From positions 107,374-171,373 of the forward strand of contig JBIOHP010000005.1 in assembly GCA_044449065.1 (NCBI GenBank): a stretch of DNA of 64,000 bases, read 5' to 3'. Made by a program: the position numbers and the translations under genes. Source of the DNA: Bacteroidota bacterium. GTDB lineage: Bacteria > Bacteroidota > Ignavibacteria > UBA10030 > SZUA-254. The notes under the pieces were generated by a model that was not told the DNA's origin, searched no databases, and saw only the letters and a list, made by a program, of their open reading frames with translations. Positions within the stretch are counted from its first letter, which is position 1. Each line of letters starts with the position of its first letter. Below, in pieces: positions 12,950-17,136 of this stretch.

Positions 12950-13047
12950 TATCCTTTTCTGAAGCGATTCTATTTCATGAGAGGGATACTTTTCTATTAT
13001 GTAGTGGGGTGAGGTTCTGGTGATAAAAAAAGGGGGCGTCCAAGTTG

Positions 13048-13208
13048 TGACCTACACCGTTGAACGAGATGGAGAGACTATGTGAAAACTCCAATTCATC
13101 TTTCAGTCAAGATTCGATTTATCGCAATGTGCACCGATATAAGGAGATCGCGACGCGGTGAAACTGCTCGCGATGACTTTTCACACAGCATCTGAATCTC
13201 GTTTTTCC
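13048..13208 (+). repeat. structured intergenic repeat unit, copy A (includes an extra ATCGCGA...TCGCGAT hairpin)
   Basis: Shares cctaca(c/g)cgttgaacgagat...tgtgaaaactc...aggagat...ttttcacaca with copy B at 13300-13425. The long-range arms TGTGAAAA and TTTTCACA are complementary. Confidence 0.5.
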
Positions 13209-13209
13209 A

Positions 13210-13278
13210 GGCGGTCATGATCCACACCATGACCGGAATAAAATGAAAAAGTTGTCATGAAATGGTTCATGACACCCC
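13210..13278. repeat. palindromic repeat (GGTCATG..CATGACC and GTCATGAA..TTCATGAC arms); a second copy at 16221..16410 carries an insertion
   Basis: ggcggtcatgatccacaccatgaccggaataaaatgaaaaagttgtcatgaaatggttcatgacacc recurs at 16221-16236 plus 16356-16410, with only a few mismatches. Confidence 0.6.
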
Positions 13279-13299
13279 GGCAAAGTAACTTTTAGGATG

Positions 13300-13425
13300 T
13301 AACCTACAGCGTTGAACGAGATTTAGAATCTGTGTGAAAACTCTGATTCCCCGTTTAAATAAGATTCAAAGTTTTGCAATTTGCATCGATATGAGGAGAT
13401 TTTTCACACAAATTGCTTAGTGTGG
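13300..13425 (+). repeat. structured intergenic repeat unit, copy B
   Basis: Aligns with copy A with indels. The stem arms tctgtgtgaaaactc and gagatttttcacacaaa are retained. Confidence 0.5.
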
Positions 13426-15531: not shown

Positions 15532-16089
15532 TCACATAATGAGGGGAATGAACATTTTTGTCCGCTGCATGTAGCGGGCGTATTCATCGCCAAACTTTTT
15601 GAGCATTTCATGCTCTTCTGTTTTTGCCGTCGCTACCAGAGCCCATAGATTCACCACCGCGCACGCTGCTGTTGCCGGGGTCATTTCCTTGAAAAAAATA
15701 CCGGCGCCGAGGAGTACGAGCGACGCATAGAGCGGATGACGGATATAACGATAAATGCCTGCAGTAACGAGCGCCGTTGTATTTTCGATCTGACCCTCCG
15801 GCTTGCCTGCTGTGCGCAAGGCGTTGAATCCGTAGAGAGGTAGCGGAATTGCTCCAAAAAGAATCACCCAGGAAATGAGTTGATTCCACGCCCAGGGATG
15901 CACAAACCACACAGGCGCGCACAACAAGGTAAGGATGAGGATGCTTTCAAATGAAAAGAACCGGTAAACGCCATGATAGCGACCAGCCCTGAGGGAGAAA
16001 AACCATGAAATAATGCTATTCGTGATGGTGCCAACTGCCAGAATAACAACAAATACTGTAGTTTTCATGGGAAATTTAAAATGAAACAA
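15532..16089 (-). CDS. isoprenylcysteine carboxyl methyltransferase (ICMT)/phospholipid methyltransferase family membrane protein
   Basis: Multi-TM protein with the ICMT-family C-terminal motif RYIRHPLYASLVLLGAGIFF...E. Confidence 0.7.
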   Translation of the reverse strand: MFHFKFPMKTTVFVVILAVGTITNSIISWFFSLRAGRYHGVYRFFSFESILILTLLCAPVWFVHPWAWNQLISWVILFGAIPLPLYGFNALRTAGKPEGQIENTTALVTAGIYRYIRHPLYASLVLLGAGIFFKEMTPATAACAVVNLWALVATAKTEEHEMLKKFGDEYARYMQRTKMFIPLIM

Positions 16090-16236
16090 TCATAAATTAA
16101 CAATAATAATATGAACGAGATGAATCTCGTTCTACAAGTTACTTTTTGGGTGCCCCCACTTCGATCTCAAGTGATAAAGTCACTCTTGCACGAGACTTCG
16201 TCTTGCGCTACATTTTTCTAGGCGGTCATGGTCCAC

Positions 16237-16355
16237 GAGTCTGTCCGAGAACTCGTAGTAGCGGGTCACCTGACCCGCGCCCATGCCCAATTGGATTCGA
16301 AATAGCCGCCGATCTGGTGATCGGCTACTACAAAACATGGTTCTCGGACAGACTC
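16237..16355. mobile_element. MITE-like 119-bp element with perfect 16-bp terminal inverted repeats, inserted inside another palindromic repeat
   Basis: Terminal inverted repeats GAGTCTGTCCGAGAAC / GTTCTCGGACAGACTC. Internal nested palindromes GCGGGTCAcCTGACCCGC and TAGCCG..CGGCTA. It interrupts the 16221..16410 copy of the repeat seen uninterrupted at 13210..13278. No ORF. Confidence 0.55.
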
Positions 16356-16476
16356 CCACACCATGACCGGGATAAAATGAAAAGGTGTCATGAAATGATT
16401 CATGACACCCTGGCATGGTGCCAATTGCCAGAATAACGACAAACACTGTAGTATTCATTGGAAATTATTCCTAGTG

Positions 16477-17136
16477 CTAATCGTTAATCATGGCAATCGC
16501 TCTCACCGGAGATCCATCGGCATGTTCAATATTCAACGGTAAACATTGAAACGAAAAAGCTTTATCCGGAAGTTTGTCTAAATTGGTAAGATTTTCGACC
16601 AAAATTATTTCTTTTTCCAACAGAATGTGATGGTTGGGCAGGTTTTCGGATGTGACATCTTCCGCGGAGAAAACCCTATCCACCGAAAAAGAGTCGATGC
16701 CAATACCCTTCAGGTTGAATTTTGTTAGCCAACGCGCCGCTTCCTGGGTCGGAATAGGGCAATTCTCAAAATAGTCGTCCCTATTCCATTTATACTGCCA
16801 GCCGGTAAAAAAGAGGATGAAATCCACCCGTGATATTTTTGTTTCAAACTTCTTCAAGAAATTCACATCAATTTCTTTTCTATCCCGGCAGGGAATTACA
16901 ATTGCGCTGCCGATAAATTTATCGATTGGGAACAGGTCTAATGATTTTGTATTTTTTACTATGTGGCATGGAGCGTCGATATGCGTCCCCGAGTGCAGTA
17001 CCATCGTCATTTTAAGCTCGGCAAAGTCATTTTTTTCAACGGTATTGAGAACTTCAAATGCAGGCCGAAGAGTATCGGGGTATACCGTAATTTTCTCATT
17101 CAGAATATGAGTAAGGTCAATAAGTTTATTTTGCAT
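16477..17136 (-). CDS. cyclase family protein (kynurenine formamidase-like)
   Basis: Conserved HSGTHIDAPCHI motif of the putative cyclase/arylformamidase fold, 219 aa. Confidence 0.75.
   Translation of the reverse strand: MQNKLIDLTHILNEKITVYPDTLRPAFEVLNTVEKNDFAELKMTMVLHSGTHIDAPCHIVKNTKSLDLFPIDKFIGSAIVIPCRDRKEIDVNFLKKFETKISRVDFILFFTGWQYKWNRDDYFENCPIPTQEAARWLTKFNLKGIGIDSFSVDRVFSAEDVTSENLPNHHILLEKEIILVENLTNLDKLPDKAFSFQCLPLNIEHADGSPVRAIAMIND

Follow-up and report, generated by a model that had tools for sequence, protein, structure and literature searches.

Why should one small repeat lie nested inside another? In the 64-kb stretch of DNA analysed here (the window), a preliminary description had reported a palindromic repeat that is intact at 13210-13278 and recurs at 16221-16410, where a 119-bp insert (16237-16355) splits it, and had proposed two families of small non-autonomous mobile or structured elements, one inserted into the other. 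On the basis of the sequence comparisons described below, the insert is very probably an IS1182-type MITE that was put by a transposase acting in trans into the loop of a palindrome, and the outer element a REP-like doublet of hairpins. The coordinates of the features discussed are collected in Table 1.

Table 1. Repeat features of the window and related loci (positions refer to the window unless a locus is named)
Feature	Position	Strand	Remarks
Inner element	16237..16355	.	119-bp non-coding MITE with IS1182-type ends; missing from paralogous copy A; long-hairpin fold
Left TIR GAGTCTGTCCGAGAAC	16237..16252	+	Identical 16-mer terminates elements in L001, L002 and L003; near ISMno8 end GAGCCTGTCCGAGTAAC
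Right TIR	16340..16355	-	Exact reverse complement of left TIR
Target-site duplication, left copy CCAC	16233..16236	.	Single CCAC in copy A at 13222-13225
Target-site duplication, right copy CCAC	16356..16359	.	Single CCAC in copy A at 13222-13225
Outer repeat copy A (empty site)	13202..13282	+	Hairpin 1 13212-13235, loop CCAC; hairpin 2 13251-13276
22-mer TGTCATGAAATGGTTCATGACA in copy A hairpin 2	13253-13274	+	Core shared with 31 metagenome loci
Outer repeat copy B (filled)	16213..16415	+	92% to copy A in two pieces (BLAST)
Copy B hairpin 1 arms	16223-16232 and 16360-16369	+	Fold
Copy B hairpin 2	16384-16409	+	Loop ATGA; fold
M2a, second MITE-like element	13074..13192	.	119 bp; TIRs GAGACTATGTGAAAAC and GATGCTGTGTGAAAAG
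M2b, third MITE-like element	13326..13415	.	90 bp; interior homologous to M2a, not to inner element
Third palindrome, intact	16113..16132	.	GAACGAGA-TGAA-TCTCGTTC; unfilled counterpart of M2a target
~420-bp repeat loci	L011, L013, L015, L016, L019, L021-L024, L027, L028, L030-L033, L035-L038 (e.g. L022 280-680)		

Alignment of the two outer copies shows that the insert does split the second one: copy B consists of 16213-16236 and 16356-16415, which are ~92% identical to copy A, where the empty site reads gatCCACacc. The split had been placed between gtccac and cacacc; what is found instead is a standard 4-bp target-site duplication, with CCAC directly repeated on both sides of the insert. This duplication had been missed. 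It coincides exactly with the 4-nt loop in a hairpin that has a 10-bp stem, CGGTCATGGT-CCAC-ACCATGACCG. The TIRs are perfect as described (16/16), and in the 64 kb GAGTCTGTCCGAGAAC occurs only as this one pair, even with up to three mismatches (chance expectation 0.27). The empty paralogous site and the 4-bp duplication, together with the same TIR around unrelated interiors elsewhere and the match of the TIRs to IS1182 ends (both set out below), bear out the proposal that one element inserted into the other. The internal palindromes that had been noted in the insert exist as well, with single-strand folding z values of -7.1 for the insert, -3.3 for copy A and -9.1 for the filled copy B. No transposase homology was detected in the 119 bp by tblastn with IS1182 transposases, and the ORFs over the insert are spurious overlapping frames only. 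Within the 64 kb this element type is represented by one exact copy and by two relatives whose TIRs have diverged. When the full-text literature was searched for the TIR sequence, chance primer matches alone were returned.

The recurrence of the outer repeat is real, and both copies are slightly longer than had been described (13202-13282 and 16213-16415). Its sequence can be written ...GGCGGTCATG(A/G)TCCACACCATGACCGG(A/G)ATAAAATGAAAA(A/G)G(T)TGTCATGAAATG(G/A)TTCATGACACC..., and it is composed of two ~24-nt hairpin units, each with a 10-bp stem and the loop RTGG, which stand in inverted orientation with a T/A-rich spacer between them; the hairpin 1 loop CCAC is the complement orientation of the RTGG of hairpin 2. 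The window holds two copies, which are separated by 3 kb within a region where local duplications occur, and at neither of them is a target-site duplication of the outer repeat visible. Both are intergenic and lie amid ordinary genes, namely those for molybdopterin oxidoreductase subunits, two proteins without a family match, a PEMT/ICMT-like methyltransferase, a cyclase-family protein, whose next-closest homologues are 79% identical, and an O-methyltransferase; Pfam and tblastn searches revealed no transposase among them.

The hairpin is not confined to the window. A metagenome scan with TGTCAWGRAATGRTTCATGACA gave 31 loci, against an estimated chance expectation of ~0.6. All of these copies are intergenic, the host sequences range from 32 to 54% GC, and a single 917-kb metagenome contig carries four copies of the core hairpin. 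The same choice is made at three degenerate positions in 30 of the 31 loci, and the base pair just outside the searched 22-mer is Watson-Crick, with three pair types, in 16 of 22 distinct contexts, where 7.1 would be expected. The complete doublet is seen twice in the window and in L002, L012/20/25, L018/34, L026/29 and L040, and thus in at least five non-window loci, with spacers that differ. In these doublets the loop of hairpin 1 is kept (CCAC or CCAT, the complement orientation of RTGG) while the stem shifts with compensatory changes, from CGGTCATG.. in the window to CGGTCACG.. in L012, ..ATCACGAA in L018, GTGTCGGGAA in L026 and CTGTCAG.. in L040. Among six double-hairpin loci, which had not been picked for hairpin 1, five of the ten pairs of this hairpin are changed on both sides and 91.5% of cells pair, compared with 23-47% in slid controls; a larger set of units gives the same covariation picture, but that set was selected for pairing. 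The hairpin core was absent from viral contigs. Rfam gave no relevant match at E<=1 in 12-18 kb of the window or at E<=0.1 in eight loci, and a full-text literature search for the hairpin sequence yielded chance primer matches only. When the ORFs within 4 kb of the hairpins were clustered across the 31 loci, no transposase or other protein was found to recur; the sole multi-locus cluster, a 92-aa C-terminal domain that is probably a secretion tag, did not reflect synteny and was set aside.

Several of these loci show features of their own. The surroundings of the core hairpin vary between lineages. In one of them it is part of ~420-bp repeats with long TIRs (...AAGCATAGGCGTCAACTTAA...), which carry it near one end together with a second hairpin, CCGGAAC...GTTCCGG, and are present in several copies per contig (Table 1). 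In a tandem sub-repeat of L027 the stem is wholly replaced and the loop kept (GTAAGGAA-GTGG-TTCCTTAC). At L026 3950-4170 and L029 8753-8973, two core hairpins stand 199 bp apart between tandem GH127-family genes on a contig of 54% GC. Since the nearest named homologues of the GH127-family gene (~62% identity) are from Blastocatellia/Acidobacteriota, the hairpin may extend beyond Bacteroidota. At L018 5968-6090 (minus strand), Rfam gave a match to Rickettsia sRNA47 that stays below threshold (54.6 bits; gathering score 60; E = 4e-11) and is unrelated to the hairpin.

By its architecture, the outer element would be REP/REPIN-like, and we claim for it neither membership of that class nor mobility. 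Of the two families that had been proposed, the inner one is a MITE, whereas the outer one stands as a dispersed hairpin family that may or may not be mobile. A rival reading, which we give a substantial chance somewhat short of even, sees in the outer repeat a locally duplicated terminator/operator hairpin pair under selection, and in the likeness elsewhere a shared protein-binding or termination signal. It would account for two copies lying 3 kb apart in a locally duplicated region with neither an associated transposase nor a target-site duplication, and it agrees with a consensus terminator scan, in which hairpin 2 with the T-rich spacer is terminator-like on the minus strand in both copies, that of copy B lying 66 nt after the stop codon of the cyclase gene. 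However, most metagenome copies of the hairpin are without a T-tract, the core recurs several times per contig, in numerous intergenic settings unrelated to one another and within lineage-specific longer repeats, and the spacers of the doublets differ from locus to locus. The hairpins may serve as terminators or in the manner of REPs. Integron attC sites, CRISPR, IS200/IS605 ends, LexA-type operators and kissing loops were rejected for the outer repeat, as judged by sequence features alone.

The preliminary description saw two elements only at this site and overlooked M2a and M2b at 13.07-13.42 kb. M2a lies in the loop of a palindrome, GAACGAGA-TGGA[M2a]TGAA-TCTCGTT, with one mismatch in the duplication (TGGA vs TGAA). 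M2b has only the left palindrome arm (TGAACGAGA), without a right arm and without a duplication; M2a and M2b both have related TIRs, with the consensus GARNCTRTNNGARAAC. A local duplication (13046-13148 vs 13298-13400, 77% identity, 252-bp period) takes in the left flank of M2a/M2b, so that M2b is probably the product of a segmental duplication and not of a transposition event. The intact third palindrome is, like the outer repeat, terminator-like on the minus strand.

The region as a whole is a mosaic of repeat modules. A linker motif, aagttacttt, stands beside the third palindrome and again, inverted, to the left of copy B (16124-16160). In addition, a 52-bp direct repeat (16025-16076 / 16415-16466, 90% identical) represents a duplication from the PEMT/ICMT-like gene (15532..16089, minus strand), of which it comprises the 5' UTR and the initial ~14 codons. 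Its second copy adjoins the right end of outer copy B, and the two copies bracket a 338-bp segment in which both the third palindrome, intact, and the outer repeat, filled, are found; this may reflect either a long duplication or the remnant of a tandem paralogue. Two ORFs run across the MITE and the outer repeat, one of 96 aa at 16146-16436 (plus strand) and one of 92 aa at 16180-16458 (minus strand), the latter beginning with the duplicated N terminus of the gene (MNTTVFVVILAIGT). Both are almost certainly spurious and open to mis-annotation as hypothetical proteins, and for annotation purposes ORFs called across 16146-16458 are best treated as such. Further along the window, ten tandem paralogues of ~2.4-3.1 kb at 33000-60000, which are 60-90% identical in stretches and contain repeated 'SPDG.WIAY'-type motifs and TPR-like segments, look like an expanded gene family.

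Elements bounded by the same TIR were found in other genomes. A scan of a genome collection with the pattern TIR + N65-95 + GTTCTCGG gave three loci in three lineages (estimated chance expectation ~0.1). L002, from Ignavibacteria, has a 116-bp element with perfect TIRs and the duplication ATGG/ATGG. In L001, from a Chromatiales symbiont, GTAG/GTAG encloses an element of 117 bp, and immediately after it comes a diverged copy of 159 bp (L001b) that ends in CTAG. L003, from Verrucomicrobiales, has a degenerate 58-bp mini-element without a duplication. The interiors of the TIR-sharing elements are unrelated to one another, and all elements found so far are intergenic. Ends that are conserved around free interiors, at unrelated loci and with a 4-bp duplication, are to be expected from transposition and not from a conserved structured RNA. 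The exact 16-mer also has six single matches in viral contigs, which lie inside phage coding sequence without a partner TIR and were put down to chance. MITEs are seen just downstream of a cyclase-family (PF04199-type) gene both in the window (gene at 16477-17136) and in L001 (4004-4984); the two proteins are 24% identical, and with two cases only, the shared neighbour is probably a coincidence.

Where these elements sit bears on the question of nesting. Three insertions, those of the inner element, M2a and the L002 element, fall precisely within the 4-nt spacer that separates the arms of an 8-10-bp palindrome. In each the spacer is the duplicated sequence, and sites of such geometry make up ~1e-4 of window positions. 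The L002 target, once reconstructed as an empty site (CTGTCAAGGA-ATGG-TTCATGACAG), proves to be hairpin 2 of a member of the outer repeat family, with a hairpin-1-like palindrome just upstream. Proteobacterial IS1182 relatives insert at CTAG, itself a 4-bp palindrome, and the L001 insertions (GTAG/CTAG) conform to this. It has been reported that IS1272 and TnSha1, of the IS1182 family, take hairpins or inverted-repeat structures as integration sites and depend little on their sequence, and the same papers cite Siguier et al. (2015) for palindrome-targeting IS1182 members (PMC4923244; PMC5678879). A MITE group that seeks short perfect palindromes with a 4-nt spacer will find them in intergenic hairpin repeats, and the nesting then follows from target choice. 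The preliminary description, which saw the insertion of one element into another and no more, did not recognize that the arrangement reflects a target preference and not a coincidence. It is unlikely, in our estimation, that the enrichment in hairpin loops arose without targeting, through random insertion with survival only in harmless intergenic palindromes. Such a retention bias would fit the intergenic position of every element found, and the L001 and L003 elements, which are not in palindromes, as well as the proteobacterial relatives that use CTAG, speak in its favour. However, it explains the intergenic place and not the base-exact placement in the 4-nt loops of three independent, different palindromes, at a kind of site that is so rare in the window and that members of the family are documented to choose.

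The assignment to IS1182 is based on the ends. In a BLAST search of concatenated MITEs against plasmids, a 159-bp MITE resembling L001b was found on a Pseudomonas plasmid (L041), CTAG-GAGGCTGTCCGAGAAC...ATTCTCGGACAGCCTC-CTAG, where it stands directly after the C-terminal remnant of an IS1182 transposase (tblastn). A 30-mer query of CTAG and the TIR matched an Agrobacterium plasmid, on which CTAG-GAGGCTGTCCGAGTAAT precedes the remains of a decayed gene, 70-73% identical at the DNA level to annotated IS1182-family transposase genes (BLAST); a hand-spliced pseudo-protein of this relic gave no Pfam match. The intact ISMno8 of Methylobacterium nodulans has the form CTAG-GAGCCTGTCCGAGTAAG...GTTACTCGGACGGGCTC-CTAG around a 444-aa IS1182 transposase. 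Between its end GAGCCTGTCCGAGTAAC, which next to CTAG can also be written GAGCCTGTCCGAGTAAG/C, and the TIR of the inner element there is a difference of one substitution and one inserted base. CTAG-GAG(T/C)(C/A)TG is the start of ISKpn6 and of each of four relatives found in viral contigs. The 4-bp duplications are CCAC in the window, ATGG in L002, GTAG in L001 and CTAG in L041, ISMno8 and ISKpn6. It has also been reported that ISPse1, of the IS1182 family, has 16/16 inverted repeats and a 4-bp direct repeat (PMC3281130), and IS1182-related MITEs of ~160 bp with 4-bp direct repeats have been described before (PMC3852290). As the TIRs match the annotated ends of IS1182-family elements, the insert can be placed as an IS1182-type MITE. 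Head-to-tail pile-ups on one 4-bp target are seen in L001 (3720-4010, two MITEs) and in L041 (2668-3163, the IS1182 remnant and then the MITE), which suggests repeated use of a regenerated target.

A search for the cognate transposase had been suggested in the preliminary description, and local tblastn detected none in the window, in L001-L003 or in the L010-L040 loci. No IS1182-type transposase is encoded in the 64-kb window, no full-length IS with the exact GAGTCTGTCCGAGAAC TIR was found, and in the window and all collected loci no TIR pairs stand far apart around a large ORF. The IS427 and IS1031 groups of IS5, and ISAzo13, also have GAG-type ends and 2-4-bp duplications, and IS1182 and IS5 are related families. 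With a TIR that begins GAG, a 4-bp duplication and IS1182 as the sole family tested, the parent could have been sought in IS5 proper (the IS427 or IS1031 group) or ISAzo13 instead. We regard this as quite improbable, for the sole annotated elements with matching ends (GAGCCTGTCCGAGTAAC, GAGGCTGTCCGAG...) encode IS1182-family transposases, and six other IS1182 relatives have GAGYMTG ends. That the inner and outer parts form one structured RNA or regulatory element, with a lineage-specific expansion of its first hairpin and no transposition, would suit the folding of copy B as an extended hairpin (z = -9.1) and the covariation of the stems across loci, but is hardly credible given that the direct CCAC duplication fits transposition and not helix expansion, that in other phyla the same 16-bp ends surround interiors of unrelated sequence at unrelated loci, every one with a 4-bp duplication of its own, and that Rfam gave no match.

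For the insertion of an IS1182-type MITE into a hairpin loop, the following course of events can be proposed. An IS1182-type transposase, encoded outside the window and acting in trans, would bind both 16-bp TIRs, and the element would be integrated through strand transfer, staggered by 4 bp, at the point where a perfect palindrome has its dyad centre; in DNA extruded as a hairpin or cruciform this point corresponds to the loop base. The subsequent repair would duplicate the 4-nt loop (CCAC) only. A dimeric transposase might attack symmetrically around the dyad, with either the extruded hairpin or the symmetry of the duplex as the signal, and it would be structure rather than sequence that is recognized.

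If this is correct, the nesting is explained by a MITE of a hairpin-seeking IS family, for which dispersed palindromic repeats provide landing pads, so that genes are spared. IS1182-type MITEs and the preference of the family for hairpins were known already; what the sequences presented here appear to add are new examples of hairpin-targeted insertion in which the arms are intact and the loop alone is duplicated. Loop-only duplication bears on the unsettled transposition mechanism of IS1182/IS1272, the family to which ISKpn6, adjoining blaKPC, also belongs, and structure-directed IS1182 integration would, if true, follow a pathway so far drawn only as a hypothesis for IS1272. The second outcome is an intergenic hairpin family that is conserved among metagenomic genomes of Bacteroidota-like type and whose description is absent from Rfam and from a full-text literature search by sequence. 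More tentatively, and with considerable doubt on our part, the MITEs might be taken as natural evidence for structure-directed IS1182-type integration, with strand transfer at the base of the 4-nt loop and duplication of the loop only, and their landing pads as an undescribed REP-like family with the core TGTCATGAAATGGTTCATGACA and the loop RTGG, which recurs in several uncultivated lineages that differ in GC and would owe its retention to a hairpin-binding protein.

Compared with known systems, the outer repeat is like REP/REPIN/BIME elements in being a pair of short imperfect palindromes in inverted arrangement, intergenic and dispersed, with compensatory stems and in mosaic repeat clusters. 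It is unlike them in that no RAYT (Y1 transposase) gene was found among the neighbours of the 31 loci or, by Pfam, among the flanking genes of the window, and in that there is no conserved 5' GTAG, the flanks of the outer repeat being CCWGG/CYGG-like. REPs are usually species-specific, whereas the core hairpin described here is common to lineages of different GC (32-54%). The inner element shares with the IS1182 elements ISMno8, ISKpn6 and ISPse1 and with the ISMac2-related MITEs of Methanosarcina acetivorans the ~16-bp TIRs starting GAG(Y)CTG and the 4-bp target duplication, and with the latter also the short, non-coding form with family-type ends. It differs from them in its hosts, which are Bacteroidota/Ignavibacteria, in the lack of an autonomous partner with the exact TIR in the window and the collected loci, and in its targets, which for the window-type elements are 4-nt spacers of longer palindromes (CCAC, ATGG, TGAA) and not CTAG.

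Insertion into the loop of a repeat has a precedent in IS1397 and ISKpn1 of the IS3 family, which insert into the loops of enterobacterial REP/PU palindromes with a 3-4-bp duplication. These are likewise specific for the loop of a dispersed intergenic palindromic repeat; however, they belong to a different IS family, have TG...CA ends and are autonomous elements rather than MITEs. A further parallel, from the same IS family, is IS1272/TnSha1 of staphylococci, which also takes inverted repeats or terminator hairpins as targets with little primary-sequence specificity (PMC4923244; PMC5678879). IS1272 does away with the stem-loop or takes its place, and no duplication is left behind, whereas the insertions described here have the arms intact and the loop alone duplicated, and this is the outcome of the alternative, hypothetical pathway c that was drawn beside the removal of the stem-loop (PMC5678879).
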